A DNA stretch of 64,000 nt from Candidatus Krumholzibacteriota bacterium (GCA_963727455.1 CAVSGG010000012.1:32001-96000), one strand, 5' to 3'; positions 45,324 through 63,900 are shown, numbered from the stretch's first letter. The notes: generated by a model not told the origin, from the letters alone. Translations and numbers: made by a program.

Positions 45324-45342
45324 TCCTTAGAGGGTAATGTAA

Positions 45343-46338: not shown

Positions 46339-47384
46339 CGTCTACCTCCCTCCCTTCGGCGCGGTGCGCCGCCTCGCGCAGTCCCAGGATTCTCGTAATC
46401 AACTCGACCACCCGGTTGGCGTAGCCCCAACCGTTGTCGTACCAGATCACCGACTTGGCCAGGTTTCCTCCGATGACGAGAGTGCAGAGACTGTCGAAGA
46501 TCGCCGAGTGCGAATTCCCGATAATGTCGCTGCTCACCACCGCATCCTCGCTGTACTCGACGATCGAGGCGTAAGTGGTCTTGGCCGCCGATCGAATCAC
46601 CTCGTTGATCTCCTCGCGTTTCACGTCACGCTCTAGTAGGCAGGTGAGATCGATGTTCGATCCGTCGGGCACCGGCACGTTGAGCGCCATGCCATCCAGC
46701 TTGCCTTCGAGCTCCGGAAGCACGCGCCCGATCCCCGCGGGAGAGTAGGTCGAGGTGGGAATGATGTTCTCCGCCGCGGCGCGACTTCTCCTCAGATCGG
46801 CTCCGGGGACGTCGGCCAGGCGAAGGGCATTGGTGTAGGCGTGCACGGAGGTCATGACCGCGTGCGCCACTCCGAAGTTGTCGTCCAAGTAGGCGCAGGA
46901 TCGGCGCCAAGCGTTGATGGTGCAGGAGCCGTTGCTCACGATACGATGCGAAGCGTCGAGGGCATCGTCGTTCACCCCGGTCACGATCAGGGCATCCACG
47001 TCCTCGGGCGTCTTGGGCGGGTAGCACAGAATGACCGCGTGGGCGCCCCGGTCCAGATGCCGGGTGAGCATCTCGCGCGTGCGGTATTTGCCCGGTGGCC
47101 TCGATGACCACGTCCACCCCCAGCGCGCCCCAGTCCACCTCACCCGGCTCTCTGGCCGTGATCATCTGAATCTGCCGGCCCTTCACGTACATCGCGCTCC
47201 CCACGACCGAAACCGGGTCGCGGAAGCGCCCGTGGACGGTGTCGAATTTCAGCAGATATTCCAGACCCTTGGGATCGGCCACGTCGACGATGGCTCGGAC
47301 TTCGATATCGTCGCGAGGATAGACGATGCGGAAGATGTTCCGGCCGATGCGCCCGAAACCCATGATTCCGATTCGTACGTTCAT
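46335..47384 (-). CDS. Divergent GAPDH paralogue (indels near 47092, 46911, 46893 and probably the C-terminus)
   Basis: IMGFGRIGR, FDTVHG, SNGSCTIN, HAYT, NIIPTSTYSP, MALNVPVPDGS, WYDNGWGYA. Exact stop uncertain. Confidence 0.85.
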
Positions 47385-47519
47385 ATCCGCTCTCACTTCC
47401 GATTGTAGAAGACGCGGGCGAGAGTTGGTCCCCCGCGCCGTCCCGATGCGAGGCATCAAGCTAGCGCCGTTGCGCCAGATTATCCAGTCCCGCGTGCCGG
47501 CGGCCCTCTCGACGCCATC

Positions 47520-47548
47520 TTGCCGCCCCACCCCACAAGTGCTAGTGT
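47520..47548 (+). promoter_or_regulatory. Candidate sigma70 promoter for the dehydrogenase-symporter operon
   Basis: TTGCCG-N17-TAGTGT with extended TGn. Confidence 0.5.
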
Positions 47549-47676
47549 GCCTTGCCGCCTCCGGGAAGACCCTGGAGGCCACAATTCCGGATCGGATCGC
47601 TCCCCCGCGGGCGGGGGACGAGAGCGGCGAGACCCGCACTTTCGGATTGCGGATCGCATTCTCCAAGGAGGACGAA

Positions 47677-48796
47677 GTGGCGAAATATCGCATCGCATGG
47701 ATGCCCGGCGACGGCGTGGGCAAGGAAGTCATGCAGGCTGCGCGAATCTGTTTGGATGCTTTGAACTTCGACGCCGAATACGCCGGACGCGGAAATTGGC
47801 TGGGAGCTGTGGATGAAGGAGGGCAATCCCCTGCCCGATCGCACCCTGGAAATTTTGCGCGGCACCGATGCCTGCCTCTTCGGCGCCATCACCTCCAAGC
47901 CCAAGGCCGAGGCCGAGGCGAGTCTGCCCGAAAATCTCAGAGGCAAGGGACACGAGTACTTCAGTCCCATCGTGCGGCTCCGCCAGGAATTCGACCTGCA
48001 CACCAATCTCAGACCCTGCAAGGCCTACCCGGGGAATCCCCTCAACTACCGGGACACCATCGATCTCGTGGTGTTCCGCGAGAACACCGAGGGACTCTAC
48101 GTCGGAATCGAGTGGAGCCCGGTGCCCGAGGAGTTGTGGAAATCGGTCCGGGCCAATCACAAGAAAGCGGCCCGCTTCGATTCCACGCCACTTGACGAAA
48201 TGGCGATGAGCGTCAGGATCATCACCGAGAAGGGAGCGCGGCGCATCGTGACCCAGGCTTTCGAATATGCCAAGAAGCACGGACGCAAGAGCGTGACCTT
48301 GGTGGAAAAGCCCAACGTTCTGCGTGAAACCAGCGGTCTCATGACGCGCGTCGCGCGTGAAGTCGCGGCTGGCTATCCGGGAATCGAGCTCTGGGAGACC
48401 AACATCGATGCCATGATGATGTGGCTGGTGAAGAACCCCGAGAGCTACGAGGTCATCGTCACTTCGAACATGTTCGGCGACATCACTAGCGACCTCTGCG
48501 CGCAGTTGGTCGGCGGTCTCGGATTCGCGTGCAGCGGTAACATTGGCGACGAGTACGCCGTCTTCGAGCCCACTCACGGCAGTGCGCCAAAATACGAGGG
48601 CCAGAACAAGGTCAATCCCATCGCGGAGATCCTCACCGCGAAAATGATGCTCGAGTGGCTCGGGGAAGGGCAGTTGGCACGACGCTTGGAAGGCGCCGTG
48701 GCCGAGGTCATCGCGGAGGCCAAGGTGCGTACCTACGACATGGGAGGCAACAGCACGACTCTGGAACTCGCTGAGGCCGTGGCTGCCAAACTCTAG
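47677..48796 (+). CDS. Isocitrate/isopropylmalate (beta-decarboxylating) dehydrogenase family (indel near 47784)
   Basis: AAGGAGG RBS; [53 protein letters not shown]. Confidence 0.9.
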
Positions 48797-48804
48797 GAGA
48801 GCGC

Positions 48805-50378
48805 GTGCTGCTTTCTCCACTCGATCTGCTCGTCGTCGCCCTCTACGCCGGGGCCGTTCTCGGCCTCGGCGTTCTCGCTTCCTTCCGGCAGAAAGGAAGC
48901 AGTGAGTTCTTCCTCGCGGGACGCTCGCTTCCCTGGCCGCTGGTCGGCGTTTCCATTCTCGCAACCGCATTTTCGGCCGCATCACTCTCTGGGAGGACCG
49001 GGCGAGGCCTTTCGAACACGGCTTGCTCTGGCTGCAACTCCAGCTCGGCGACCTGCCGCCATCCTGGTCGTGTGTTGGCTCTTCCTGCCCTTCTACCAGT
49101 CGCTGAACGCCACCACCGCCTACGAATATCTGGAGCGGCGTTTCGGTCCGCGGGCGCGCCTTCTCGCCGCGCTGCTCTTCCAACTTCAGGTGGTCTTTCG
49201 GCTGGGAGTCCTACTCTACGGCCCCGCGCTTGGCGCTCTCCGCACTCAGCGGAATCGATCTGCGCATGTCCATCGTGGCAGTTGGGCTCGTGGCGACCGC
49301 CTACACTCTGATGGGAGGGCTGGCCGCTGTGGTCTGGACCGACTTCTTGCAGTTCGTCGTCGTGATCGCGGGAGTCGTCCTCTGCGCCGCGCATCGCCGT
49401 CGGCGGCATACCGGGAGGACTCAGAGCGCCCTTCACCTCGCGCGCGAGCACGGCCGTCTGAAGTTGGTGGATCTTTCGTTCCGCTCGAGCTCCGTGCGTT
49501 CGGTAGCCGGCGCCGTACTGGGTTACGGAATCCTCTCGCTCTCGGTGGCGGGGACCAATCAACAGCCGGTGCAGCGCTATCTCGCCTGCAAGTCCACCGC
49601 GGACGCACGCCGAGCCGCTTTGACGGGCTGGGCGGTGGGACTCTTCGTCACCCTCATCACTCTGCTCTTGGGGGTGCTCTTCTTCGCCTTCTACCAAGCT
49701 CCACGCGCACGAGCTCTCCCCGGACTGGCCCCCGACGCCATCTTCCCCCGCTTCGCGGCGGACCATCTCCCGGCGGGGATTCTGGGGCTCGCAGTGGCTG
49801 CGATCTTCGCCGCCGCGATGTCCAGCCTCGACTCCGCTCTGCACTCTCTCTCCACCTCGAGCGTGGTCGATCTGTACCGCCGCTTCTTCAGCAGCAATCG
49901 AAGCGACATGCACTACTTGAAGGTCGCGCGCGGAGCCACCTTGAGCCTGGGGTCTTTTGGGAATCGCCGCCGCGCTCTACGTGGCGGGCCGCGGCTCGCT
50001 CTTGGCGATGGCGGTACGCTACGTGGGTTATTTCGCGGGACCCGTCCTCGGGCTCTTCCTTTTGGGGCTCCTGATTCGACGCAGCAACGAAACCGGCGCG
50101 GTGAGTGGAGTGTGCCTGGCCTTCCTCGCGGTTGTCCTCAGCGTCAACGCCGAGACCTTCTTCGGCCGTCCGAGCCCCGTGCACGGAATCTGGATCGCAG
50201 CCCTGGGCTGCGCGGTGACTCTGGCCGCCGGGACCCTCTCAGCCTGCTCGCGCCGGCCCCGGCGCGCGGCAGCTGCAGGGACTCGTGCGGGGAGAGGCCG
50301 CGGGCACACAGCCCCTCGGCGCGCGGCAGAGCTGGACGGGTGGGCGGGATTCTCAGCGCATGCCGCGCTGGCTCTTGA
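48805..50378 (+). CDS. Sodium:solute symporter (several indels)
   Basis: [58 protein letters not shown] spread across frames. Confidence 0.85.
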
Positions 50379-51092
50379 TTTCCTCGTAGGCCTCTTGGAT
50401 TTCCTTGAAGCGGGTCTCCGCGAGTTCGACGAATTCCTGCGGCAGTCCCTTTCCGATGATCTTGTCGGGATGATACTCGGCCACGAGATGACGGTAGCGC
50501 GACTTGATTTCCTCGGGACTGGCCGAAGGAGAGACTCCCAGAACTGCGTAGTAAGCGCTTCGGGTCGCCACCTCGGCCCGACAGCAGTCCATCCACCGCT
50601 CCCTCTCCCATCTGGAAGATCCGCGCCGCTGCACGCAGCATCTTCTCCTCATTGGGATGCACCGTGCCGTCGGCCGCGGCCAAGCCGCACCAAGAGGTCC
50701 AGCATGACTTCGCGCATGCGCGGCTCGGCCGCGAAGATGCTCGCGAACTGATGGGCGTAGTCCTCGAAGCTGTCCGGACTGTCCTTGGCCTTACGAAAGA
50801 TCTCGATGGCGTAGTTCTGGTCCTGGGCAGAGAGCCGTAATTGGTTGCGCATGAAATCGCGCACCAGAGCGATCTCCTCGTCGCTCACGTGACCGTCCGC
50901 TTTGGCCAGCTTCGCCAGCATGGAGAAGGTGGTGACGAAGAATGCCGCCTGCGCCTGTTGTCGGGCGTCGGCGATCCGGCCACTGGCACCCTCGCCCAAC
51001 TTGTGACCCACCACGGCTCCCAGGATGCCCCCGATGGGTCCTCCCAGAGAGAAGCCGATGGCACCGCCGAAAATGCTGCCGATGAGACCCAC
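50353..51092 (-). CDS. djlA: DjlA-type co-chaperone (TM + TerB-like + J domain; indels near 50683 and 50560)
   Basis: Gly-rich TM, KLAKADG.VS..EI, A.ADG, Y.VLG..EIK..YR.L..EYHPDK...FKEIQ.AYE. Confidence 0.85.
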
Positions 51093-51153
51093 GGAGCTTC
51101 CTCTCAGTCCTGCAGAATCTGCGCGGAGCGGCGAAGCCGTCGGAAGGGCCAGC

Positions 51154-54100
51154 TCAACCGCGACCTGCGCCCGCCACGGTGTCTTCGACCAGAGTCGCCG
51201 TGGTCGGGAGCAATACCGAGGTGAGGAAGGTGCTGACCAGGAGTCCGCCCATGATCACCAACGCGATCGAGTAGTAGTAGACTCCGCCGATCGTAGGTTT
51301 CTGTACCACGATGGGGACCAGTCCGATGAGAGTGGTCAGTGCGGTCATCAAGATGGGCCGCAGCCTCTCTCGTCCACCCTTCAGCATCGCCTCCTCGCGC
51401 GGCATGCCCGCCCTGCGGTAGGAGTTGATGTGCTCGAGCATCACGATTCCGTTGTTCACCACGATTCCGATGAGCAGGAGCAAGCCCACCGCGGCCGGTT
51501 GATCGAAATCGGTTCCGGTGAGATAGAGAGTCCACATCGCTCCCGCGAGCGCGAAGGGCAAGGCGACCATCAGGGCAATGGCCTGACGCACCGATTCGAA
51601 GAGGCCCGCCATGACCGCGAAAACCAATAGCAGCGCCAGACAGAGATTGACCAGGAACTCGCGTGACTTCTCCTTGTTGCGCTCCTGCCAGCGTCCGAAT
51701 GTCCAGCGGTAGCCATAAGGGAAATGCATAGAGTTCATGGCCGCCGCCACCTGCGGCATGTAATCCTGGCCGCGGCCTTCGCGGTAGCTTGCGCCGACCC
51801 AGAGGCTCGTGAGCCGATTGTCGCGCTGGATGCGCTGCGCTCCCGGAACTTCCTGCAGAGCCGCCATGGAGGCCAGGGGAATCCGCGCCCCGCTTTCGGT
51901 CCAAATGGGCAAATTCTTGAGCTGCGCGAAGGTCTCGACTTTCTGCTCGTCCAGGGTGAGACGCATTTCGCGTTCCCCCTCGGGCGTGCGGTAGCGCGGC
52001 AGACGACGCCCGCGGTAAGTCAGTCCCACGATCTGCGCGGTCTGAGTGGGCGAGACTCCGTAGCGCGACAAGAGTTCGCGGTCGAGCTGGACATGAATCT
52101 CCTCGCTCCCCTCGTCCATGCTGGAGAAGGGCTCGCTCAGACCGTCGATTTGCATCAGCCGCGCCTTGGCCTCCTCCGCGAGACGAGCCAACACCTCGGA
52201 GTCCTCGCCCACGATCTGGAATGCCACTCTCTTGCCCCGATCCATCCGCCACTGTTGGCGGTTCTCCTGCACCTCCACCTTCACTCCGGCGATGGGAGGA
52301 ATGATCTTGGGCAAGAGCGTTCTCACCTTGGCGAAGTTCTCGTTGGTGGCCTCACCCTTCTTCAGGTAGATGCGGGTGAGCGTGAAACGATCGCTCCAGA
52401 AAGAATAGATCGAGCGCGCGTTCATTTCCTTCTTGTGCTTTTCGAGCGCGGTTTCTACCTGGCTCACGATTTTCTCTTTGCGCGCGAGGCTCATGTCCTC
52501 GCTGAAGTCGTAGCGCATGCCCACGAAGAGCTCGGACTGCGTGGTATCGAAGTTCTTGTCAACTCTCATGAAAGGGATATAAGCGGATGCTAATATTGCA
52601 ATTCCAATGACAGGCGCCAGCCAGCGATGGCGCAAATTGAAGGCCAGAAGCGACTGGTAATGATCCTCCAGGCCCACCATCAAACGCCCTTTGGGCCCGG
52701 GGCGGCGCCGCACGAACCAGGAGGTCGCCATCGGGATGAGGGTCTGGCTCACGAAGAGCGAGGCCAGGAGCGAGATACACACCGTGATGCCCAACTCGCG
52801 CAGGTAGATGTTCATCTCGCTGGGCTTGTTGAAGATGAGCGGCAAAAAGACGATGACGGAGGTCAGAGTCGCCGCCACCACCGCGGTGGAGACCTCCTTC
52901 GCGCCCAGGAGCGAAGCCTTCTTCTGGTCCTCGCCCATCTCGCGGTGTCGGAAGATGTTCTCCATCACCACCACCGCATTGTCCACCAGCATGCCCACCC
53001 CCACGATCAACCCCAAGAGGGTGAGGGTGTTCAGGGTGTGACCCTGACTCCAGAGAACCCCGCAGGTCACCACCAGGGAGAAGGGAATGCACATCACCGC
53101 GATGAGGGTGATCCCCACCCGCCGCAAGAAGAGAAGGAGCACCAGCCCGGCCAAGATGGTGCCGAACACTCCGCTGAACGCCAAGTCGCGCAGGGTATGT
53201 TCGATTTCCTCTCCCTGGTCGAACCAGACCAGAAAGTTGACACCCTCCAGCTCGGGATCGGAGTTCATCTCCGCGATGCGTTTCTTGAGCGCGCGGCCGA
53301 CCTCCACGGTATTCGCCTTGGCCTCCTGGGTGACTTCGATACCCACCGCGAAGCGCCCGTCCAGATGGCGCCCGTATTCCAGTGGAGGCTCCGCGTACTG
53401 CACGTCGGCCACGTCGGAGAGTTTCAAACCGTCTTCGCGCAGCGGCAGATCTTTGATTTCTTCCACGCTGCCCAGGGTGGAGAGAGTGCGCACCGAGTAA
53501 CGCCGTTCGCCCTCTTCGATCTTGCCCAGACTCATGTCGAAGTTCGACCCCTGCAGCACGCGCAGCACCTGGCGCACGTCCATGTCGTAGAACTGCAGAG
53601 CGTCGACTTTCAGATTGACCCTGACTTCCTTGGGCGCCACTCCGTCCATCCGCACTTGCGCCACTCCGGGAATCCGCTCCAAGGGCCGCACGATGCGGCG
53701 GTCCAAGAGGTCGTAGCTCGCGCTGAGATCGCGCTCGCTGGAGAGCCGTCCCTCGAGAATCGGCGCGTCGGCGTCGCGATCGTCCCAGTTGTTCGAAACG
53801 CGAATGTCACCCAGATCTTCGGGAAGATCGCGGCGCACGCGGTCCACTTTTTCCCAGATCTCCGTACGCGCCACGTTGAGATCGGTGCTCCAGGAGAAAC
53901 CCAGGCGAATTCTGCCCCCGTCGCTGCTGCACATGGACCACATGTTGTTCAGACCCTTGACCGAGCCCACTGCGTCCTCGACCGGGCGCACCACCATCCG
54001 CTCCACCTGTTCGGGAGAAGCGTTCGCGTAGGGAAGCGTGATGAAGAGCTGGGGACGCTCGAACTCGGGCATGAAGGCCAAAGGAAGCCGCACCAGGGCG

Positions 54101-54180
54101 ACGAGCCCCAACACCAAGAGACTCACCAGAACCATCAGAGTCGTGACGTGACGGCGAATGGCGATCTCGGGAAGGGTCAT
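51154..54180 (-). CDS. RND efflux permease subunit
   Basis: 1008 aa; GMLVDNAVVV.EN, GIVVNNGIV, RLRPILMT.LTT. Confidence 0.95.
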   Translation of the reverse strand: MTLPEIAIRRHVTTLMVLVSLLVLGLVALVRLPLAFMPEFERPQLFITLPYANASPEQVERMVVRPVEDAVGSVKGLNNMWSMCSSDGGRIRLGFSWSTDLNVARTEIWEKVDRVRRDLPEDLGDIRVSNNWDDRDADAPILEGRLSSERDLSASYDLLDRRIVRPLERIPGVAQVRMDGVAPKEVRVNLKVDALQFYDMDVRQVLRVLQGSNFDMSLGKIEEGERRYSVRTLSTLGSVEEIKDLPLREDGLKLSDVADVQYAEPPLEYGRHLDGRFAVGIEVTQEAKANTVEVGRALKKRIAEMNSDPELEGVNFLVWFDQGEEIEHTLRDLAFSGVFGTILAGLVLLLFLRRVGITLIAVMCIPFSLVVTCGVLWSQGHTLNTLTLLGLIVGVGMLVDNAVVVMENIFRHREMGEDQKKASLLGAKEVSTAVVAATLTSVIVFLPLIFNKPSEMNIYLRELGITVCISLLASLFVSQTLIPMATSWFVRRRPGPKGRLMVGLEDHYQSLLAFNLRHRWLAPVIGIAILASAYIPFMRVDKNFDTTQSELFVGMRYDFSEDMSLARKEKIVSQVETALEKHKKEMNARSIYSFWSDRFTLTRIYLKKGEATNENFAKVRTLLPKIIPPIAGVKVEVQENRQQWRMDRGKRVAFQIVGEDSEVLARLAEEAKARLMQIDGLSEPFSSMDEGSEEIHVQLDRELLSRYGVSPTQTAQIVGLTYRGRRLPRYRTPEGEREMRLTLDEQKVETFAQLKNLPIWTESGARIPLASMAALQEVPGAQRIQRDNRLTSLWVGASYREGRGQDYMPQVAAAMNSMHFPYGYRWTFGRWQERNKEKSREFLVNLCLALLLVFAVMAGLFESVRQAIALMVALPFALAGAMWTLYLTGTDFDQPAAVGLLLLIGIVVNNGIVMLEHINSYRRAGMPREEAMLKGGRERLRPILMTALTTLIGLVPIVVQKPTIGGVYYYSIALVIMGGLLVSTFLTSVLLPTTATLVEDTVAGAGRG

Positions 54181-57100
54181 TCCGAGACCTCCGTGCTCTC
54201 GCTCGCCTTGACCCGCGAAGGAACGATGACATAGGCGGCAGGGATCACGACCAGAGTCAGCAGTGTGCTCAATGCCAGACCCGAAGCCACCGTGATCGCC
54301 AGCGGCGCGCGCAGTTCCGAGCCTTCTCCGAAAGCGAGTGCCATGGGCAGAAGGCCCAAAACGGTGGTGATCGTGGTCATGAGAATGGGCCGCAGGCGCA
54401 GGTGTGCGGCCTCGATCACGGCCGCCCGCTTCTCGACTCCGGCCCGGCGGCGGCGGTTGATGGCATCGATGAGAACGATGGCGTTGTTCACCACGATGCC
54501 GACCAGCATGATGACTCCGATCAACACGATCACGCTCACGTCCGTGTGGGTCGCGAAGAGACCGGCCACCACTCCGACCAGAGCCAAAGGAATGGTGAAG
54601 AGCACCAGGAAGGGATGCAGGAAACTCTCGAAGGTCGCGGCCATGACGATGTAGACCAAGAACACGGCCAAGAGCAGTGCGAAGCGCAGACTCGAGAAGC
54701 TGCGCGCCATCTCCTCCTCCTGCCCGCCCATGTCCACCGTCGTGCCTGCCGGGGAGGGCACTTTCGCCAGCACTCGCTTCACGGATTTCACCGCGTCACC
54801 CAGGCTGTGCCCCTTCAGGCCAGCGCTGATGACGGCCGCGCGCTGTTGTTGTACGCGGTGAATTTCGGAGGGTCCCGTTCCCAAACGAACCTGCGCCACG
54901 GTGAGAAGGCGGATGGGTTCGCCGTCGGGCCCGGGCAACACGAGATTCCGCACGTCCTTCACCGAGTGGCGCTCCTGCTCGAGATTGCGAACGCGGATAT
55001 CGATCTGCCGGTCCCCTTCCTTGAAGCGCGTGGGCACGGTGCCCTGGATTCGGTCGCGCAGAGTCTGCGAGAGTTGTCCGAGGTCCAGCCCCAAGGACGC
55101 GACGCGGTCCCGGTCGAAGATGACTTCGACCTCCGGGCTCCCCGCTTCCAGGGAAGAGCGGACGTCGACCAGCCCGTCGATCTGAGAGAGAGCGCTCGCG
55201 ACCCGCAGCGACCAGTCGCGCAGCTCATCCAGGTCCTCGCCGAAGAGATAGACCTCGATCGGCGTCTGCAGACTGAAGTAGGTGGGCCTCCCGCTGTGGA
55301 TCTCCACGCCGGGTGCACTCTCGTACTCCTGCCGCAAGGTGGACATGACCCGCGCCTCGGCCTTGTCGTCCCCGCGATTCTTGAGCACCACGTTGAGCTG
55401 GGCGAGGTTCTCCGCTTTGGTGTTCAGGCTCATCCCCCCTGCCACCAGGCGGCTGCCCACCGTGGAGTAGATGGTTCCCACCTCTTCCTGCGCGGCAGCC
55501 TCGGCCTCCATCTTCTTCATCTGGCGGTCCGTCGCGGCCAGCGAGGTCCCTTCCGGCATCTTCAACTCGAAGAAGAACTCGCCCTCGGTGAGGGAAGGCA
55601 GAAGCTGCGTGCCCAGCCGGTTCACGGACGCAATCGAAACTCCAAAAAGAACCAGCGCGATCAACAGAGTCATCGCGGGGCGTCGGGTCGCGCCACGCAG
55701 GAGACGGTCGTAGTAGCGCTCGAAGGCACCCAGTTGCATTCCGGCCGGCGCGATTTCCGATGCCGTCGCCGATGCCGATGTCTTGTCCTCGCCCAACCCG
55801 CTCAGCATGGGGATGACGGTGAGCGCCACCGCCAGAGAGGCCAAGAGACTGAAGGTTACGGTGAGGGCCTGATCGCGGAAGAGCTGGCCCGAAATTCCCT
55901 GCACGAAAACCAGGGGCAAGAAGACTGCGACGGTGGTGAGCGTGGAAGCGGTGACCGCCGCCGCCACCTCGAGGGTTCCCTCGATGGCGGCCTTGCTCCG
56001 CGACATACCGAGCTGGCGCTGCCGATCGATCGATTCCAACACCACGATCGAATTGTCCACCAGCATGCCGATCCCCAGGGTGAGCCCCCCCAGGGACATC
56101 ACGTTGAGCGTAATGTTCGCCCGGTACATGAGCAGGAACGCCGCGACCACCGACAGCGGAATCGAGGTGGCGATGACCAGGGTCGCACGCCAGTCTCTGA
56201 GAAAGGCCAGGAGCACGAGTACGGCCAGAATTCCGCCGATCACCGCGGCGGAACGTACTTCGTCGACGGCCTGCTTGATGAATTCGGATTGATCGAAGAG
56301 CCCGGTGAGCTTGTAGTTCTTGGGCAGTTTTGTCGCGTTCCATTCGTCGATGCGTTTGTGAAGGCGTCGCGCCAGCTCCACCGTATTGGCATCGCCCTCC
56401 TTGAAGATGTCGATTTCGACCGATTCCTTGCCATTGACGCGGGTGATCTCCTCGCGTTCCTTGGTGCCGCGCTTCACCTCGGCGACGTCACCGAGCCGCA
56501 CCACCCCACTCTCTCCGCGGAAGACGATGAGGTTGGCGATCTCGTCGACGCTGTCGAACTCGTTGATGGTGCGAATGAGATAGTGATTCTGCGCGCCGCG
56601 AAGCGATCCCCCAGGCAGGTTGACGTTCGAGACGCCGACTGTCTGCGCGACTCGGCTCAGCGGAATGCCCAGCGCGGCGAGCCGCTCCTGGTCCACGTTG
56701 ATCTGGATCTCGTCCTCGAGACCGCCCTTGACCGCCGCCGAGGCGACGCCAGGGATGGACTCCAGGTCCTGCTTGAGCTGCTTGTCGGCGAGCCGCCTCA
56801 GAGCGGCCAGATCATCGCTGCCGGAGAGGGCCAGGCGCACGATCGGATCGAGCGAGGGATCGTAGCGGAGCACGATGGGGTCCTCGGCTTCCTCCGGGAG
56901 CACGATGCGATCCAGTTTCTCGCGCACGTCCATGGACAGCATGTCCATATCCGTGTTCCAGTCGAAGTTCAGGGTGACTTCGCTCACCCCCGAGCGGCTG
57001 ACGGAGTGAATTTCGCGCAGACCGCGCAGGACCCCAACCGCCTCCTCCACGGGACGGGTCACCAGGGTCTCGACCTCTTCGGGAGCGGTATCGGGGAACT

Positions 57101-57251
57101 CCGTCTGCACGGTGAGGCTGGGATAGGAAATGTTGGGAAAGAGCTCCAATGCGAGCCGTTGGTAGCCGACGAGGCCGAAGGCGGTGATGGCCAAGGCCAC
57201 CATCACCACGGTGACCCGCCGACGCACAGCCGTGGCGACGAGGGCGCGCAT
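54177..57251 (-). CDS. RND efflux permease subunit
   Basis: 1024 aa; APEEVE..VTRPVEE, GMLVDNSIVV.E, GIVVNNAIV, RLRPILMT. Confidence 0.95.
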   Translation of the reverse strand: MRALVATAVRRRVTVVMVALAITAFGLVGYQRLALELFPNISYPSLTVQTEFPDTAPEEVETLVTRPVEEAVGVLRGLREIHSVSRSGVSEVTLNFDWNTDMDMLSMDVREKLDRIVLPEEAEDPIVLRYDPSLDPIVRLALSGSDDLAALRRLADKQLKQDLESIPGVASAAVKGGLEDEIQINVDQERLAALGIPLSRVAQTVGVSNVNLPGGSLRGAQNHYLIRTINEFDSVDEIANLIVFRGESGVVRLGDVAEVKRGTKEREEITRVNGKESVEIDIFKEGDANTVELARRLHKRIDEWNATKLPKNYKLTGLFDQSEFIKQAVDEVRSAAVIGGILAVLVLLAFLRDWRATLVIATSIPLSVVAAFLLMYRANITLNVMSLGGLTLGIGMLVDNSIVVLESIDRQRQLGMSRSKAAIEGTLEVAAAVTASTLTTVAVFLPLVFVQGISGQLFRDQALTVTFSLLASLAVALTVIPMLSGLGEDKTSASATASEIAPAGMQLGAFERYYDRLLRGATRRPAMTLLIALVLFGVSIASVNRLGTQLLPSLTEGEFFFELKMPEGTSLAATDRQMKKMEAEAAAQEEVGTIYSTVGSRLVAGGMSLNTKAENLAQLNVVLKNRGDDKAEARVMSTLRQEYESAPGVEIHSGRPTYFSLQTPIEVYLFGEDLDELRDWSLRVASALSQIDGLVDVRSSLEAGSPEVEVIFDRDRVASLGLDLGQLSQTLRDRIQGTVPTRFKEGDRQIDIRVRNLEQERHSVKDVRNLVLPGPDGEPIRLLTVAQVRLGTGPSEIHRVQQQRAAVISAGLKGHSLGDAVKSVKRVLAKVPSPAGTTVDMGGQEEEMARSFSSLRFALLLAVFLVYIVMAATFESFLHPFLVLFTIPLALVGVVAGLFATHTDVSVIVLIGVIMLVGIVVNNAIVLIDAINRRRRAGVEKRAAVIEAAHLRLRPILMTTITTVLGLLPMALAFGEGSELRAPLAITVASGLALSTLLTLVVIPAAYVIVPSRVKASESTEVSE

Positions 57252-58426
57252 CAGGAGGAGGACCGCTTCTGAGACCGGCCGCTCTCGTTTTGCGGCACAA
57301 GCGTGACCCCGTCGTCCTCGATGATGTGCAGGGGCTGCGCCGGTTTCAGATTGCCCTGCCCCTTCACCACGACTTTCTCACCGTCCTGAACACCGCTGAG
57401 GATCTCGGCCGAATCGTCGTCCTCGAACCCGACTTCTACCACTCGCCTCTCGGCCAAGGAATCCACCGCGACGTAGACCACGTCTTCGCCCTTCTCGTTC
57501 ACTACTGCGGCCCGCGCTACCAGCACGTTTCCCTCGCGCCGTTGCGTCTGGACTCTCACCTGGGCGAAATCACCGGGCCGCACCTGGCGGGGGAACTTGT
57601 CGATCTCGATCGTCACTTTGATGGTACCGGTTGTGGCGTCGATGACCGGACTGATCAGGGTGATGTGCCCCTGTAGCTTCAGACCATCGCTGTCGAGGGT
57701 GAGTTCCACCGGTTGCTGGACACTCAGGTTCCGAAACTCCCGCGCGGGCACGTGCAATTTGGCCAGCATGGGATGGAAGTCGGCGATGGTGAAGAGCGGG
57801 GTCCCCACGTTCACCGTCTGTCCCAACTCGATGGAGCGCTGGATCACGTCGCCCGCGAAGGGTGCCCGGACCTTGGTGTAGGACAGATTCAGACGCGCGA
57901 GATCCTCCTGGGCCTTCGCGCTGGCGAGATCGCTCTTCGCCGTCTCGAATTCTTCGACCGAAACCAGATGCTGGTCGACCATATTCTTCAAACGGTCGAA
58001 GTTCGATTCCAGTTTAGCTCGATTCGCTTCCGCTTCGCGCAAGCGATACAGGTACTCGTTGTTGTCGATCTCCATCAACACCTGGTCGGCCTTTACCCTG
58101 TCGCCCTCCTCGCACTTCAGGGACTCCACCACGCCCTGCACCCTCGCGAGGATCTGAGCCTGTTTTTGCGCCTCGAGAGTGGCGGTGGCGGAATAGTAGC
58201 TGGCGATCGATCCGCGGTGGGCCGACTCGACCGCGACGTTCGCGGCCGGTAGGGTTGGAGCGCCGGCTCCCTTGGACTGGGGCGGAGTTTTTCCCTGCGG
58301 TGGTCCCTCAGAGTTCTTGGCACCCTGGCACGACAGGAGCACCGTCGCGGCGAGAGTGACGAGTCCGAGCATGAGCGTCCGTCGAGTCCGAAGAGACGCC
58401 GTAGAATGGTGCGAACGGGAAGGCAT
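57251..58426 (-). CDS. RND periplasmic adaptor (membrane fusion protein), lipoprotein
   Basis: LLS-C lipobox, lipoyl halves (G.V.....EGD.V; APF.G), ISPVID..TGT, V.VG..EI.SG...GE.VV. Confidence 0.93.
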   Translation of the reverse strand: MPSRSHHSTASLRTRRTLMLGLVTLAATVLLSCQGAKNSEGPPQGKTPPQSKGAGAPTLPAANVAVESAHRGSIASYYSATATLEAQKQAQILARVQGVVESLKCEEGDRVKADQVLMEIDNNEYLYRLREAEANRAKLESNFDRLKNMVDQHLVSVEEFETAKSDLASAKAQEDLARLNLSYTKVRAPFAGDVIQRSIELGQTVNVGTPLFTIADFHPMLAKLHVPAREFRNLSVQQPVELTLDSDGLKLQGHITLISPVIDATTGTIKVTIEIDKFPRQVRPGDFAQVRVQTQRREGNVLVARAAVVNEKGEDVVYVAVDSLAERRVVEVGFEDDDSAEILSGVQDGEKVVVKGQGNLKPAQPLHIIEDDGVTLVPQNESGRSQKRSSS

Positions 58427-58677
58427 TGAGTGTCCTCTTGAGGGGGGTCTGAGGGGTGGTAACTCGCCGAAGCATCGCTATCTCACCAGATTGTAGCCAA
58501 AACTAAGCACGGCGGAGCAGCCTGCCACTCTACGTCGGTCCTTGGCGGAAGGTTGCTCCCCAATCCGGATCGGGACAGGTATAGTACGCTCATTGTCGCC
58601 AAGATGCGATAGGGAGAAGGCCCACGGTCGTCTCGCGGCCGGGGACGGGGTCCCATCCACCCCAAGCGAGCGTGGCC

Positions 58678-59925
58678 ATGTTCGTCAAATTCTGCCTCTA
58701 TTCGGTATTCAAGAACCTGCGCTTCTTCGAGCCCTTCTTCGTGCTGTATCTTCTCGCTCCCATGGACCGGGGCGGGGCTCAGCTCAGCTACCTGGCGATC
58801 GGCACCCTGGTCGGCTACCAGAAGCTGCTCACGGGAATTCTCGAGATCCCCCTCGGCGTGGCCACCGATCGTTTCGGGCGGCGCAGCGCCCTGATTTTAT
58901 GCTTCAGCCTCTACACTCTGGCCTTCCCCTGCTTCGCATTCGCGAGCCAGCTGCACGGCGGCGCCCTGCACGGCATGCTCTATCTTGCGCAGACTCTCTT
59001 CGGCATCGGTGAAGCCGTGCGCACCGGCAGTCACAAGGCCATCATGCTCGATTGGGTGACCCGCGAGGGAGAGATGAGCGAGGTCACGAGACTCATCGCT
59101 CGCACGCGATTTTTCTCCAAGCTCTCCTCGGGTCTGGCAGCGCTCGTGGGTGGCTTGGTGGTCTGGCGCATGGCGTCCTTCACCCCCCTCTTTCTCGCGA
59201 CCACCGTTCCCGCCTTTTGCGGGATTCTCCTCATGTTGAGTTATCCGAGCTGGCTCGAGGGAGAGCAGCGGCGAGACGGACAGCGCCGCGTTTCTCTGCG
59301 GCAGGGGCTGAGCCGTCTCTTGGCCCGCAAGGGCCTCTGGCCCGTCTTCGTCGCCTCCCTCCTCTTCGAGAGCCAAGTGAAGCTGGCGCAACATTATCTG
59401 CAGCCTTTCCTCGCGGCAGATCTGAAGGCGCGCGAACTCGCTCTGGTGGGAGGAATCGGAGCCGTGCTCGTGGGTGCCTTCTACCTGGTGCAAGGAGCGG
59501 TGGGAGCCGTCGCCGCGCGCCTCTCTGCCCACGCGGAGGAGACGCTTGGAGGAGTAACGAGCGGTCTGTCCGGCATCTACTTCAGCTTGCTTCTGGCCAG
59601 CGGATTCATGGCGCTGTGCTTCAGCCTGGGCTGGCTCTCCTTGGGCTTGCTCGGCTTCTTCGTGGTGGCAGCTCTGCAGAATTTGCGTCGCCCCATTTTC
59701 GTCTCGGGACTGAACCAGGTCATGGACCCCGCGCAACGAGCGACCACCCTTTCTCTGGAAAGCCAGGCGCGCTCGTGGTCCGTCGCCCTGCTCTCACCTC
59801 CGGTGGGCTATCTGGCCGACCGCATGGGGATCGCGGCCGCGTTCGCCGCCATCACCCTTCTTCTGGCCGTGGGCTTGCCGCTGCACTTGCGGCGCTTCAA
59901 CCCGAAGCTGGACGCCACGAGTTGA
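58678..59925 (+). CDS. MFS transporter
   Basis: LEIP.G..TDRFGRR (motif A), GE..RTG, RAT.LS, G.LADR.G; about 12 TM. Confidence 0.9.
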   Translation: MFVKFCLYSVFKNLRFFEPFFVLYLLAPMDRGGAQLSYLAIGTLVGYQKLLTGILEIPLGVATDRFGRRSALILCFSLYTLAFPCFAFASQLHGGALHGMLYLAQTLFGIGEAVRTGSHKAIMLDWVTREGEMSEVTRLIARTRFFSKLSSGLAALVGGLVVWRMASFTPLFLATTVPAFCGILLMLSYPSWLEGEQRRDGQRRVSLRQGLSRLLARKGLWPVFVASLLFESQVKLAQHYLQPFLAADLKARELALVGGIGAVLVGAFYLVQGAVGAVAARLSAHAEETLGGVTSGLSGIYFSLLLASGFMALCFSLGWLSLGLLGFFVVAALQNLRRPIFVSGLNQVMDPAQRATTLSLESQARSWSVALLSPPVGYLADRMGIAAAFAAITLLLAVGLPLHLRRFNPKLDATS

Positions 59926-59934
59926 GCTCTCCCT

Positions 59935-60813
59935 TTACTGAGACGCCGGGAGCTTGGGCAGGATGACTCCGTCACCACCATAGACGGCTTCGTCCTTGTC
60001 GCTGTAGGCCGATTCGATCCAGCTCGATCGTTTGGCGACCTCCTCCAGAATCGCCTTCACTTGCGTGGCCGCGAAAGCCGCCACCAACTCGTCGGGGATC
60101 CATCCTCCCACCGAGGTCGCGACGGTCCAGGCCAAAAGCGTTCGCTTGTCGTCGAGTTTGCAACAAACATAGGCCCCGTAGTTGGTCGGAACCCAGACTG
60201 CCTCCTGCATCATCTTTTTCGTCACCTCGGGATGCTTGCCGGAGTCCACGAGTTCGGCCGCGATGCGTTTCTCGTTCGGCGCGATGTCCCAGGTCTGGGT
60301 CCAGATGTATCCCTCCGAGGCCTTGGCCAACGCCAGCTCGTTGCGAGCCGTCACTACGGTCTGCCGATCCTTTACTGGCCAGGGGGCATGGATGTACACG
60401 TAGTCGGTGCTGCCCCCCTTCCCATCCTCCGCGTAACGCTGCAGGGTGTAGGTGTCGTTGTGCGCATAGTCCGGATCGATCCCCGCGAGCCACACCGAAC
60501 GCATCGGCATCGCCACGATCTTGTAACCGAACACCCGGTGGTTCACCTGGTCCCTGTCGCCCTGTCTCCCCTCCTTGCGCCGGATCACCACCACCTCCCC
60601 TGCCAGCAGCTGCTGCATCTGATCAGGACTCAAGCCCACCAGCGAGTCCTTGGCGTGCGAGCTGTAGAATTCGATGGCACCCGCCACGGTGCGCGCCAGC
60701 AGGGAATCCGCGCTGGCCGAGGTCTCGGCCGAAGAGGCCTCTGCCTTCGCGCGGGCACCAGGCAGCGCGGCGAGCGCGAGCAGGAGGATCGCAAACGGGC
60801 GAGAGAGGCGCAT
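59935..60813 (-). CDS. Exported START/SRPBCC-like lipid-binding protein
   Basis: Signal peptide (AKA|E); Y....APWPVKDR.V and C-terminal GGWIP..V helix typical of START folds. Confidence 0.65.
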   Translation of the reverse strand: MRLSRPFAILLLALAALPGARAKAEASSAETSASADSLLARTVAGAIEFYSSHAKDSLVGLSPDQMQQLLAGEVVVIRRKEGRQGDRDQVNHRVFGYKIVAMPMRSVWLAGIDPDYAHNDTYTLQRYAEDGKGGSTDYVYIHAPWPVKDRQTVVTARNELALAKASEGYIWTQTWDIAPNEKRIAAELVDSGKHPEVTKKMMQEAVWVPTNYGAYVCCKLDDKRTLLAWTVATSVGGWIPDELVAAFAATQVKAILEEVAKRSSWIESAYSDKDEAVYGGDGVILPKLPASQ

Positions 60814-61004
60814 GGTGCTCACTTGATCGGGTGCTCTTGGAAACGATACCCAGGCAGTGGGAAAAGAGTAGCCAGAAGGCACCAGGGCCGAAAGGGCGCC
60901 GCCTGCTCTTGATCCAAGCTGGCGCGAGGATCTAGCTTGGCGGCGTTCCTGTAGCGATCGCGACGCGATCTTTTGCCCGCCCTTCTTGGAAAGGACCTGC
61001 CGGC

Positions 61005-62207
61005 ATGAAGCTGGTCGAACACCTCGGCAAGCGCCTCCTTGCCCGATCTGGAATTTCGACGCCGAAGAGTGAGCTCGCGAGCTCTTCCGCCGACGCGCTG
61101 CGCGCTGCGGAGAAAGCTCGAGGGGCCCGTGGTCGTCAAGGCTCAGATCTTGGCTCCCGGCCGTGGGAAGCACGGCGGAATTCTCTTCGCTGAAAACGCC
61201 AAGGAGGCGGCCGAAGCGGCCGAGCTCCCTACTGAACAAGAACTTCGGTCCGGAGTTGTGCAGTAGCGTCCTGATCGAGGAACGCTTGAACATCGCCGAG
61301 GAACTCTACCTGGCGTTCACGGTGGACGCTCCGAGTCGCCGACTGAATCTGATCCTCACCCGACACGGCGGCGGAGATGTCGAGAAGATCTTCCGCGAGC
61401 AACCGCAAGATGTGATCGTGGAGCCCATCGGCGCTTTCGAAACCTTCCATCCCTTCAAGGGAAGAGAGCTCGCGCTGAGAATGGGGCTGCGCGGCAAGGC
61501 GGTGTTGAAAGTCGGCGATGCCATCACCAAACTCGTCGCCTGCGGACGCGCGAACGATTGTCGTCTCGCCGAAATCAACCCGCTGGTTCTCACCGAGGAC
61601 GGGCAGGTCGTCGCGGCCGACGCAGTGATGAACGTGGACGAGGACGCCCACTTTCGTCTGCGCTGGATGAACGAGTTCGGATTGTCCATGGAGGAGGAAC
61701 GCCCCCGGCAAGCCACACCGCGCGAGCTCTTGGCGGCGGAGATCGACCGGGTGGATTACCGCGGTTCGGTCCATTATCAGGACATCAACGAGAACGGCGA
61801 CGTGGGAACGGTAACGGTGGGAAGCGGATTCTCCATCACCATGCTCGACGTCCTGGGCAATTACGGACTGAAGCCGGCCAACTTCTGCGACTGCTCGGGA
61901 AGCCCGCCCGCCGAAAAGGTCCGCAAGAGTTGCGAGATCGTTCTGAGCATCCCCAAGATCAAGGCCTTCCTGTTTCTGAGCGGGATCATGACCCAGGACC
62001 TCACCGTCACCGCCCAGGGGATCATCGAAGCCTACCGGGAACTGTCGCCCACCATTCCCTTCATGGTGAAGTTGGCGGGCAATCGCGATCGCGAGGCCTA
62101 CCAGATGATGGTCGATGCCGGTCTGCCCCACGTGTACCAGACGGGAGGATCCGGTGGAGTCGATCGTCGAAGACTGCGTCCGTCTTCTGGAAGAGGGGAA
62201 GAGCTGA
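61005..62207 (+). CDS. ADP-forming acyl-CoA synthetase beta subunit (citryl-CoA synthetase large subunit/SucC-like); indels near 61115, 61228 and 62140
   Basis: MKL.E..GK.LL, VVVKAQI...GRGK.GGI, LIEE, ELYL, LAEINPL, PANF.D..G.PPAEK. Likely true C-terminus REDPVESIVEDCVRLLEEGKS-TGA overlaps the next ATG. Confidence 0.85.
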
Positions 62208-63121
62208 TGGCCATCCTCGTGAATCAAGACACGCGCTGCGTCATCCAGGGAGCCACCGGTCAGGGCGGCAAGCGCTTCATCCAACGCATGATCGACTTCG
62301 GCTCGCCACCGGTGGCGGGCGTCACCCCGGGCAAGGGCGGGGAAGAAGTGGCGGGGGTGCCCGTCTTCGACACCGTCAAGGAAGCGGTGGCCGCAACTAG
62401 CTGTGACTTTTCCTCCATCAACGTGCCTCCCGCGCTGGTGAAGGACGCTGCCTTCGAGGCCTTCGACGCCGGCATCCGCAAGATCTTCATGTACGCCGAG
62501 CGAGTTCCCTTGCACGACGCGATGCAGATCATGGCCTACGGCGACGAAGTCGGCGCCACCATGGTCGGCCCCAACAGCCCCGGCATCGTCAGCCCGGGCA
62601 AGTACCGCCTGGGAGGACTCGGCGGTGACAGAGAGTACGTGGCCGAGATCTTCAAGAAAGGTGAAGTGGGGCTGTGCAGCCGCAGCGGAGGCATGACCTC
62701 GACTTTGGGCTACACCATCAGTCAGGGCGGCCTGGGCCTCACTACCGCGGTGGGCTTGGGCGGGGACGCGATCATCGGCTCGCCCTTCACCAAAGTGCTG
62801 CCGCTCTTCGAAGCCGATCCCGAGACCAAGGCCATCTGCATGTTCTGCGAGATTGGCGGTAGCATGGAAGAGGAAGCGGCCGAGCTCATCAGGAGCGGAG
62901 CCATCAAGAAGCCGATCGTCGCCTTCATCGCCGGCCGCGAGGCGCGCGCCGGCTTCCGTTTCGGACACGCCGGCGCGCTGGTGGAGCGTGGTCGCGGTAC
63001 CTACGAGAGCAAGGTCGAAGCTCTGTCTTCGGCAAAGGTGGCCATCGCCAAGAATCTCAGAGACATTCCGGTTCTCTTGCGCGAAGCCCTGGGCATGCCC
63101 TCGGGCAAGGAGCAGTCATGA
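62207..63121 (+). CDS. ADP-forming acyl-CoA synthetase alpha subunit (citryl-CoA synthetase small subunit/SucD-like)
   Basis: IQGATG..G, GVTPGKGG, GPNSPG, SRSGG, G.GGD, EIGG..EE, phospho-His motif FGHAGA. Confidence 0.92.
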   Translation: MAILVNQDTRCVIQGATGQGGKRFIQRMIDFGSPPVAGVTPGKGGEEVAGVPVFDTVKEAVAATSCDFSSINVPPALVKDAAFEAFDAGIRKIFMYAERVPLHDAMQIMAYGDEVGATMVGPNSPGIVSPGKYRLGGLGGDREYVAEIFKKGEVGLCSRSGGMTSTLGYTISQGGLGLTTAVGLGGDAIIGSPFTKVLPLFEADPETKAICMFCEIGGSMEEEAAELIRSGAIKKPIVAFIAGREARAGFRFGHAGALVERGRGTYESKVEALSSAKVAIAKNLRDIPVLLREALGMPSGKEQS

Positions 63122-63900
63122 CCGACTACAGCTGGAAGACGAGTCTGAGCAAAGTCCTGCCCAACCTCATCCGAGTGCGGGGTTACGACATCAACGAGCT
63201 CATGGAGAAGCTGAGCTTTCCCGGCGCGCTCTACCTCTTGTGGACGGGCAAGGTGCCGGAGAAACCAACCGAGAAACTCATCTCTGCCATCATGGTCTCG
63301 AGCATGGATCACGGGGCTTCTCCCCCTTCGGTGAACGCGGCGCGAATCGTGGCCTCCACCGGAGGAACCCACAACGCGGCCATCGCGGCCGGCGTGCTGG
63401 CTCTGAACAGGTACCACGGCGCCGCGGTCGAAGACTGTATGCAGATGCTCGTGGACTTTTGCCAAGAGAAAGAGGAGAACGGCCAGGAAAACGCGCAAGT
63501 CGCCCATGCCATCCTCGCCCGCCTGAAGGAACGTGGCGAACGCGCCTGGGGCATCGGGCACCGCCTGCACACCGCGGACCCACGGCGCGAGACTCTCTTT
63601 CGCCTGTGCCGCAAATGCGGAGTAGACGGCAAGTACATCGAGGCGGTCGAGGCCATCGCCGCCGCGGTGACCGAGAAGGCCGGCCGGCCCATGCCGGTGA
63701 ACATCGACGGCTGCGTCGCGGCCTGCCTGTGCGAGATCGGATTTCCCAAGACCATGGCAAATGCGCTGTTCATTCTCTCGCGTTCGGCCGGGATCGCGAT
63801 TCAAGCGCGCGAAGAGATGGACACCCAAAAACCCATGCGCAAGATTCACCCTGCGGGTTTCATTTACGATGGACCGGAAGACCGCAAGCTCGAGCTGTAG
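63118..63900 (+). CDS. Citryl-CoA lyase-like protein (citrate-synthase fold, short form)
   Basis: 260 aa; RGY...LM, DHG..PS..AAR..ASTG, HGAA, G.GHR.H..DPR, NIDG, SR..G. ATGA overlap with the alpha subunit. Confidence 0.88.
   Translation: MTDYSWKTSLSKVLPNLIRVRGYDINELMEKLSFPGALYLLWTGKVPEKPTEKLISAIMVSSMDHGASPPSVNAARIVASTGGTHNAAIAAGVLALNRYHGAAVEDCMQMLVDFCQEKEENGQENAQVAHAILARLKERGERAWGIGHRLHTADPRRETLFRLCRKCGVDGKYIEAVEAIAAAVTEKAGRPMPVNIDGCVAACLCEIGFPKTMANALFILSRSAGIAIQAREEMDTQKPMRKIHPAGFIYDGPEDRKLEL

Follow-up and report, generated by a model that had tools for sequence, protein, structure and literature searches.

A 64,000-nucleotide stretch of the genome of a Candidatus Krumholzibacteriota bacterium (GCA_963727455.1, CAVSGG010000012.1:32001-96000; hereafter the window) carries three adjacent genes for the two subunits of an acid-CoA ligase, resembling succinyl-CoA synthetase (SCS) and citryl-CoA synthetase (CCS), and for a short citrate-synthase-fold protein resembling citryl-CoA lyase (CCL). 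We give an about even chance to the reading that this trio would be a reversible two-enzyme, ATP-coupled system interconverting citrate + CoA + ATP and acetyl-CoA + oxaloacetate + ADP + Pi via free citryl-CoA. To judge from its sequence, the clade with a short beta subunit to which the trio belongs is a predicted variant of a CCS/CCL-like module that occurs widely, and its predicted acid pocket resembles neither that of SCS nor that of CCS. The genes were delimited as follows:

61005..62207, + strand: beta (large, ATP-grasp) subunit of the SCS/CCS-like ligase, from reading frames, Pfam and alignment to the intact gene of a congener (G001)
62207..63121, + strand: alpha (small, CoA-binding, phosphohistidine) subunit, 304 aa, intact, from Pfam, NCBIfam and PDB matches
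63118..63900, + strand: CCL-type short citrate-synthase-fold protein, 260 aa, intact, from Pfam, NCBIfam, the match to 6hxp and catalytic residues

Gene order and domain content

The beta, alpha and lyase genes lie head to tail on the + strand, and Pfam matches with E-values of 1.8e-21 to 2.4e-38 rule out a chance resemblance to these families. The ATG of alpha overlaps the TGA of beta (TGATG at 62205-62209), and the ATG of the lyase overlaps the stop of alpha (ATGA at 63118-63121). An earlier sequence-only reading of the window had described SCS-beta-like, SCS-alpha-like and citrate-synthase-fold genes coupled via TGATG and ATGA, all of which we saw in the sequence. It had also spoken of a beta gene; the trio and its motifs are real, but beta is not one open frame, and that reading had silently crossed three breaks, which are treated below.

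The lyase retains the active-site residues of citrate synthase

The lyase matched Pfam Citrate_synt (2.4e-38) over profile positions 163-355 of 357, its 260 aa corresponding to the C-terminal part of the citrate-synthase fold. Six NCBIfam citryl-CoA lyase models also matched, the best being NF004869 (210.5 bits; cut-off 212), and the homologous lyase from an Aminicenantes chromosome (locus L039) exceeded the citryl-CoA lyase cut-off with 271.7 bits. The best solved match was the Hydrogenobacter CCL 6hxp (3.2e-38), the next a citrate synthase (1.2e-14), with modules of ATP-citrate lyase (ACL) at 1.6e-10 to 1.3e-09. Eight residues of the E. coli citrate synthase are named in the accessible part of a 2026 survey, PMC13147460 (H229, H264, H305, R314, D362, F383, R387, R407). 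All eight were observed in the lyase as H65, H100, H148, R156, D197, F218, R222 and R241, the numbering being transferred by motif and by offsets from the PDB-match alignment. They were invariant in 16 diverse family members (44-81% identity), and in an alignment with the citrate synthase encoded elsewhere in the genome the DH, HG, GHR, DPR, N-x-D and F-x3-R motifs coincide. Because all eight residues are kept, the lyase should bind oxaloacetate and catalyze the Claisen/retro-Claisen step, and we class it as a predicted CCL-type enzyme.

The ligase subunits

The alpha subunit matched Pfam CoA_binding (1.1e-19) and Ligase_CoA (3.8e-18), and the phosphohistidine loop FGHAGA noted earlier is present in its translation. 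Against the NCBIfam SucD models it scored 298 bits, under the cut-offs of 336 and 353. The 305-aa main segment of beta matched ATP-grasp_2 (1.8e-21), and beta also matched Citrate_bind (33 and 30.9 bits; cut-off 26.8). The intact beta of G001 scored 255 bits on the NCBIfam SucC model (cut-off 370) and 195.3 bits on the malate-CoA ligase beta model (cut-off 604), the latter setting it apart from malate thiokinase (MtkAB).

The unusual beta motifs reported in the sequence-only reading were confirmed by HMMER alignment to the Thermus and E. coli SucC and by the window translation, with VGSGF, NFCDCSGSPPAEK and SGIMTQD replacing NGAGL, NFLD(V/I)GGG and GGI(V/T)R(C/A)D, respectively. Trio-linked betas as a whole carry SG-[SN]-P, SG-x-x-[ST]-Q and [RK]-L-x-G-N instead of SCS or CCS motifs. 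When the C-terminal domain of beta was compared with solved structures by itself, the CCS large subunit 6hxq_B came first (2.7e-17; best SucC 4.2e-15), and a GxPPAEK stretch (G(N/S)PPAEK) is common to this domain and the CCS large subunit. Chlorobium AclB matched full-length beta at 2.9e-28. A Foldseek search with an AlphaFold (AF2) model of the G001 beta (predicted local distance difference test, pLDDT, 91.6) gave its top TM-score to 6hxq_B (0.72) and its top E-value to Thermus SCS, and so did not tell SCS and CCS apart.

Distribution of the trio

Relatives of the lyase formed 436 protein clusters at E <= 1e-10 and were encoded at at least 561 loci when one genome per species was scanned; the locus counts given here and below refer to the 80 best lyase loci of these at least 561. 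The beta-alpha-lyase order was observed in 60 of the 80, a figure that includes L025 and L043, where both upstream genes were visible though a start-codon threshold had misclassified them. Ten further loci were cut off upstream, four had alpha only and six the lyase alone. Hosts of the 80 loci comprise Aminicenantes, Anaerolineae and other Chloroflexota, Elusimicrobiota, Eiseniibacteriota, WOR-3, Calditrichia, Methanosarcinales, Desulfovirgula and others, and the closest named lyase record among the matches listed came from a Candidatus Krumholzibacteriia metagenome-assembled genome (MAG). Many of the lyases are named citryl-CoA lyase by NCBI.

The window's beta type is far narrower in range. 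In a word-based protein search, seven clusters were 72-100% identical, another set (Elusimicrobia, Acidoferrales) stood at about 40-56% and more distant groups at 33-39%, and a search with the C-terminal domain returned 26 protein clusters, indicating a separate, rare clade. Among the 30 relatives searched, a trio-type beta (81-88% identical) occurred in three of four congeners, and none was found in any of the five other same-family genomes searched. An ordinary SucC-like match was present in all 31 genomes (the window's own at C5:424755-425570). The common trio beta is longer, at about 520 aa (L039:1527-3080; also L038, L044, L060 and L099), and its last 120 aa or so form a tail, missing from the window's clade, in which two four-cysteine motifs give a ferredoxin-like appearance; Pfam called no ferredoxin domain on the 518-aa Aminicenantes beta despite its two Cys4 motifs.

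An IQ-TREE phylogeny of 50 beta rows, in which any beta exceeding 430 aa was trimmed to residues 1-400, separated a canonical SucC group (100% support) from the window's group (81%, holding a 12-row clade at 99%) and from an Aminicenantes/Chloroflexota/delta-type group (95%). The order of these three groups, i.e. the base of the tree, is not resolved, and two rows (L006_rel and L010_rel, end branches 5.8-5.9) are wrong-frame and to be ignored. The sequence-only reading had proposed such a phylogeny as a check; trio-linked betas do fall outside canonical SucC, but the tree was built on sequences other than CcsA, AclB and MtkA and cannot place the trio relative to those.

Linked LeuCD-type and IDH-type genes

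Within 4-kb flanks, a LeuC-type aconitase-family gene was observed at 56 of the 80 loci and an isocitrate dehydrogenase (IDH)/LeuB-family gene at 44. The Aminicenantes chromosome has the operon order beta-alpha-lyase-HD protein-LeuC-LeuD-IDH, the HD-domain protein (177 aa, L039:4778-5311) lying between the lyase and the LeuC-type gene. Two Elusimicrobiota loci of the beta clade to which the window belongs have the IDH-type gene immediately before beta, and L067, in this clade, also has a LeuC-type gene downstream. In the window, the counterpart of the IDH-type gene is the following:

47677..48796, + strand (GTG start at about 47677 inferred): IDH/LeuB-family dehydrogenase, broken by a +1 insertion near 47783

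Trio-linked dehydrogenases (L022, L067, L039) were 65-74% identical to the product of window 47789-48793, compared to 35-37% for the genome's LeuB and 28-32% for an isocitrate dehydrogenase-like (ICDH-like) gene. Trio-linked LeuC proteins had their best match in this genome at C12:101663-102901, on the opposite strand (44-63% identity; other paralogues 28-40%). Both partner orthologues are thus on the same contig as the trio in dispersed positions, the dehydrogenase 13 kb upstream and the LeuC-type gene about 6 kb past the lyase. Past the end of the window, LeuC-like, LeuD-like and class II aldolase genes stand in a row (L001:10339-12902, - strand; C12:100338-102901). A class II aldolase gene also adjoins the LeuC-like gene in a congener locus (L020), and an open reading frame (ORF) with an Aconitase_C domain occupies the corresponding place in L021.

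The trio is accordingly placed, on gene neighborhood and family membership, in a predicted five-enzyme module that would interconvert acetyl-CoA + a 2-oxo-dicarboxylate and the next longer 2-oxoacid. Because the trio is usually joined to LeuCD-type and IDH-type enzymes, the whole module may link acetyl-CoA + oxaloacetate with 2-oxoglutarate.

The interrupted beta reading frame

The frame opened by the ATG at 61005 meets a stop after about 60 codons. The SucC-like reading moves by +1 near 61116 (resuming at about 61117) and again near 61223-61225 (resuming at about 61226), and a third shift near 62140-62142 is needed to reach the TGA of the TGATG overlap, the true C-terminus (…DPVESIVEDCVRLLEEGKS*) being in the original frame from about 62142. 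Extra base 3, at 62140..62142, gives rise to a false in-frame beta-alpha fusion ORF of 652 aa (61163..63121). DNA alignment to the intact G001 gene placed three 1-base insertions in the window, these being the only gaps:

61005-61115, 61117-61221, 61226-62140 and 62142-62204, followed by TGA at 62205-62207, + strand: in-frame segments of beta
61116, + strand: extra base 1 (+1 frameshift in beta), alignment column 123; contigs of runs X1 and X2 omit one base at 61116
61223..61225, exact base ambiguous, + strand: extra base 2 (+1 frameshift in beta), column 236; base omitted by X1 at 61223 and by X2 at 61224
62140..62142, + strand: extra base 3 (+1 frameshift in beta), column 1152; base omitted by X1 and X2 at 62140 and by X4 at 62142

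The runs are four wetland metagenomes (X1-X4) whose Logan contigs were aligned on 60990-62215. In these four runs and over this interval no bridging contig carried an insertion, with two contigs bridging site 1, two site 2 and three site 3 (X1, X2, X4). A single 4410-nt X1 contig spans 60990-62190 with 16 mismatches and precisely the three gaps. Contigs of X3 and X4 end at 61115 and 62139, and their loose ends go on as insertion-free sequence. The contigs are perhaps not independent, because the best-matching run may be the source sample. A public protein of 399 aa (P0004) is intact and has 395 of 398 residues identical to the window beta read in four segments. At the G001 locus, alpha and lyase follow an intact beta of 399 aa, and the congeners G001, G002 and G004 have open beta frames of 423-447 aa.

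The window is syntenic with G001 from 3676 to 63911 at 79-80% DNA identity, and frame breaks beyond beta were sought by gap analysis against G001 and targeted tblastn. Six breaks were verified, all +1 relative to G001, four of them in module genes (three in beta, one in the IDH-like gene) and two in the following:

46367-47399, - strand: glyceraldehyde-3-phosphate dehydrogenase (GAPDH) gene, +1 insertion near 47091; tblastn pieces in frames -3 and -1, 94% and 92% identical to G001
44507-45326, - strand: PpiC-type rotamase lipoprotein gene, +1 insertion near 45083-45093 relative to G001

The verified breaks all lie in the last 19 kb (about 45000-62200), a local cluster for which coverage or a strain mixture are candidate causes; the first 40 kb of the window yielded no verified break. 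A supposed break at about 40777, within a 725-aa G001 ORF, was rejected as it lies 64 nt upstream of the ATG of the window ORF (40713), probably between genes. Directly downstream of the split GAPDH gene, at 45346-46335, is a further GAPDH paralogue with 51% identity.

We consider that the three beta frameshifts are probably assembly (consensus) errors. This is the likeliest cause because the metagenome contigs, the congeners and the nearly identical public protein lack the extra bases, and because the GAPDH, PpiC-like and IDH-like genes are similarly broken. The density of breaks tells the other way, as three within 1.2 kb is far more than elsewhere in the window; together with the share of the six breaks that fall in one module, it keeps a recent true inactivation in play. 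By that account the extra bases, including the one in the IDH-like gene, would be present in the DNA, and beta, hence the module, would be a real and very recent pseudogene in this strain. The insertions do lie outside long homopolymers, and a congener without the trio-type beta (G003) indicates that loss occurs in the genus. Nevertheless, we hold this to be improbable: two genes foreign to the module carry the same type of break, the broken beta differs from the intact allele in 3 of 398 residues, alpha and lyase are intact, and the insertions are missing from every bridging contig (three other runs). The quality of the assembly (88.85% complete, 6.68% contaminated, 18 contigs) is also consistent with genes split by assembly.

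Metabolic context in the genome

Elsewhere in the genome we found one full-length citrate synthase, canonical sucCD, an AcnA-size aconitase and a third IDH-family (ICDH-like) gene. Also present are a NifJ-type pyruvate:ferredoxin oxidoreductase (PFOR; 1773 bits), a VorB-like 2-oxoacid:ferredoxin oxidoreductase, a two-subunit KorAB-like 2-oxoacid:acceptor oxidoreductase and a succinate dehydrogenase/fumarate reductase (Sdh/Frd)-type flavoprotein. A genome check for separate sucCD, citrate synthase, por/kor and frd, as the sequence-only reading had recommended, thus returned a candidate for each. That reading had cautioned against assuming carbon fixation from the window, and the caution holds even though PFOR, KorAB-like and Sdh/Frd-like genes exist outside it: carbon fixation is neither shown nor excluded, because the parts of a reductive tricarboxylic acid (TCA) cycle equally make up the TCA cycle of an anaerobic heterotroph. 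Among five other trio genomes, a full citrate synthase was found in two Aminicenantes chromosomes and in the Krumholzibacteriia MAG, and in two Chloroflexota trio MAGs (completeness unknown) a search for full-length citrate synthase turned up the lyase only.

Proposed function and alternatives

Alpha-beta pairing is the textbook arrangement of SCS-like ligases. As in SCS, CCS and ACL, the ATP-grasp beta subunit would phosphorylate the alpha histidine (FGHAGA), the phosphate would then pass to the acid held in the C-terminal domain of beta, and CoA bound on alpha would displace it to give the thioester. The 260-aa lyase would perform the citrate-synthase retro-Claisen step. The cleavage reaction is near equilibrium, with a standard-type free energy of -8.0 kJ/mol in the accessible part of PMC13147460. 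As to direction in this genome, we lean slightly toward citrate cleavage over synthesis, because an ordinary (hydrolytic) citrate synthase is also encoded. In hosts where no citrate synthase was found, the ATP-yielding synthetic direction is plausible.

Several observations weigh against a citrate-cleaving CCS/CCL pair. The alpha subunit is nearer to the archaeal SucD 2yv1 (3.5e-83) than to the CCS small subunit (3.9e-54), full-length beta is nearer to the Thermus SucC 3ufx (1.3e-52) than to the CCS large subunit 6hxq_B (9.4e-39), and 3ufx also gave the top Foldseek E-value with the AlphaFold model. The citrate-binding residues of CCS are given, in the available text of bioRxiv 10.1101/2022.10.25.513756, as F270, G296, G297, A327, N328, N329, T330 and R363 of 6hxq chain B. 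In the HMMER alignment beta has V, S, G, M, T, Q, gap and L at these positions, one identity in eight. The other trio-linked beta clades are likewise without the CCS N-N-T and R363. The linked dehydrogenase fell under every NCBIfam equivalog cut-off, its best score being 301.6 bits (cut-off 540) on the homoisocitrate dehydrogenase AksF2, and the linked hydro-lyase passes the hacA_fam and IPMI_arch models, i.e. the homoaconitase/isopropylmalate isomerase (IPMI) subfamily. Finally, the genome's citrate synthase, AcnA, ICDH-like and SucCD proteins make a second citrate route look redundant. On these residues, the acid pocket of beta is predicted to fit neither characterized enzyme, SCS nor CCS. 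The likeness to CCS + CCL claimed in the sequence-only reading therefore stands for the lyase, for which 6hxp is the best match and the residues are kept, but is partial for the ligase.

Because beta keeps one of the eight CCS citrate-binding residues, the related hydroxy-acid that the sequence-only reading had offered as an alternative is retained. The same chemistry would then act on a hydroxy-tricarboxylate other than citrate, e.g. homocitrate (from 2-oxoglutarate + acetyl-CoA) or 2-methylcitrate, and with its partners the trio would serve 2-oxoacid chain extension or shortening. In favor of such a substrate are the loss from beta of the SCS motifs and of seven of the eight CCS residues, the motifs of their own shared by the trio-linked beta clades, the best score of the dehydrogenase on homoisocitrate dehydrogenase models and the match of the hydro-lyase to the homoaconitase/IPMI subfamily, and the separate full set of citrate synthase, AcnA, ICDH-like and SucCD genes. 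We regard it as a minority possibility, since the lyase keeps, with unchanged spacing, every citrate synthase residue for oxaloacetate binding and catalysis, the dehydrogenase scores nearly equally on the isocitrate dehydrogenase model PRK08997 (263 bits, cut-off 510), and the two Chloroflexota MAGs in which no full-length citrate synthase was seen fit a citrate role there. It is very improbable indeed that the ligase is an ordinary second SCS that stands beside a truncated citrate synthase by chance, with no functional link. SCS is the best solved relative of alpha and of full-length beta, and JGI labels several homologues succinyl-CoA synthetase beta subunit, yet both subunits score under the NCBIfam SucC and SucD cut-offs, the SCS motifs of beta are replaced, a canonical sucC-sucD pair is present at C5:424755-425943, the trio-linked betas stand outside the fully supported SucC group, and the three-gene order is kept at three-quarters of the best loci across many phyla.

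We also see a further, rather unlikely reading, in which the trio with its LeuCD/IDH-type partners would be an energy-conserving substitute for the hydrolytic synthase step of 2-oxoacid extension. The CS-fold lyase would condense acetyl-CoA with oxaloacetate (or 2-oxoglutarate) and the SCS-derived ligase would recover the thioester as ATP, giving an ATP-yielding route to 2-oxoglutarate (or 2-oxoadipate) in uncultured anaerobes. The short-beta clade would then be a variant with a remodelled acid pocket, possibly for another substrate.

Comparison with characterized systems

The CcsAB and Ccl of Hydrogenobacter thermophilus were reportedly described by Aoshima et al. in 2004 and Verschueren et al. 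in 2019. Like CcsAB + Ccl (6hxq, 6hxp), the trio consists of three separate polypeptides, with an ATP-grasp large subunit, a GHAGA small subunit and a CS-fold lyase of about 260 aa; CCL is the closest solved relative of the lyase, the C-terminal domain of beta is nearest to the CCS large subunit with PPAEK in common, and Citrate_bind is matched. Unlike CcsAB, the trio has kept a single one of the eight citrate residues, its alpha and full-length beta are nearer to SCS, and its family is linked to LeuCD-type and IDH-type genes. The hosts differ too: that of CcsAB is an autotroph of the Aquificae, and the trio stands in a MAG of mesophilic wetland type, with the Krumholzibacteriia MAG as its closest named relative. 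ACL (Chlorobium AclAB, 6hxj; Methanothrix, 6hxi; human ACLY) shares the three modules and the presumed overall reaction. In contrast to ACL, where they are fused, alpha and lyase of the trio are separate genes (with the ATGA overlap), and the PDB matches to ACL are much weaker. We take the form of the SG-x-P loop of beta to resemble the ACLY loop. The ACL of Desulfobacter postgatei reportedly works toward citrate with a gain of ATP (Moeller et al. 1987); this enzyme, a fused ACL and not a trio, offers a precedent for the reverse direction.

The trio resembles SucCD in fold, in its subunit pair and in its phosphohistidine mechanism, and the best full-length solved matches are of this family (3ufx for beta, 2yv1 for alpha); it differs in missing the NCBIfam cut-offs, in the replacement of NGAGL, LD(V/I)GGG and GGI, and in having canonical sucCD elsewhere in the same genome. 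The sequence-only reading had named, as grounds for abandoning its proposal, an ordinary SucCD present as the sole copy, and both the missed cut-offs and the second pair speak against this. Another close counterpart is the trio operon of Aminicenantes, Anaerolineae and others, which has the same beta-alpha-lyase order, the same IDH-type and LeuC-type partners and no CCS N-N-T or R, its lyase and alpha being 43-50% and 44-50% identical, respectively. Compared to that operon, the window beta is short (399 aa) and ends without a cysteine-rich tail, it belongs to a clade with motifs of its own (CDCSGSPPA, SG[IV][MV]TQD), and the partner genes are dispersed.

The characterized CCS/CCL is that of Hydrogenobacter, and genome surveys (PMC13147460, PMC9802188) assign the pair to Aquificaceae and Leptospirillum. 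Ten 'rTCA2' MAGs were found in the survey of PMC9802188, and CCS homologues are reported by phylogeny alone from Acidobacteria, Deltaproteobacteria, Calditrichales and DPANN in the portion consulted of bioRxiv 10.1101/2022.10.25.513756. In full-text literature, supplements lying outside the search, we found no assay of the trio family and no mention of it for Krumholzibacteriota; Supplemental Table 1 of the preprint may add taxa. The possibility that the trio is an already characterized, widespread arrangement thus applies in one respect, as it is widespread, but no biochemical characterization was found in this literature outside Aquificae and Leptospirillum.

Neighboring genes

Divergent from the trio is a gene for a secreted protein of about 270 aa (window 59935-60747, - strand), which had no Pfam match and stands in the same place in G001. 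An MFS transporter gene is at 58672-59925, and window 51154-58426 (- strand) has two tandem genes of RND-pump size (1008 and 1024 aa, the second alone being read) with a 391-aa lipoprotein-like gene after them. Beyond the window, an 892-aa ORF (L001:7864-10542; C12:97863-100541) lies 3' of an M14 peptidase gene and had no Pfam match. The domain search of these trio neighbors (MFS transporter, secreted protein, M14 peptidase and 892-aa protein) gave no functional hint.

Implications

The single-base insertions in beta and several other genes call for caution in annotating this assembly. The CCS/CCL pair is taken to mark the reductive TCA cycle of Aquificae and Leptospirillum. The trio shows a related but separate ligase-lyase set to be common among uncultured, heterotroph-looking anaerobes from many phyla, in which automatic pipelines would count it as carbon fixation. 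If the trio runs toward citrate, it would offer a means of gaining ATP from the citrate-synthase step.

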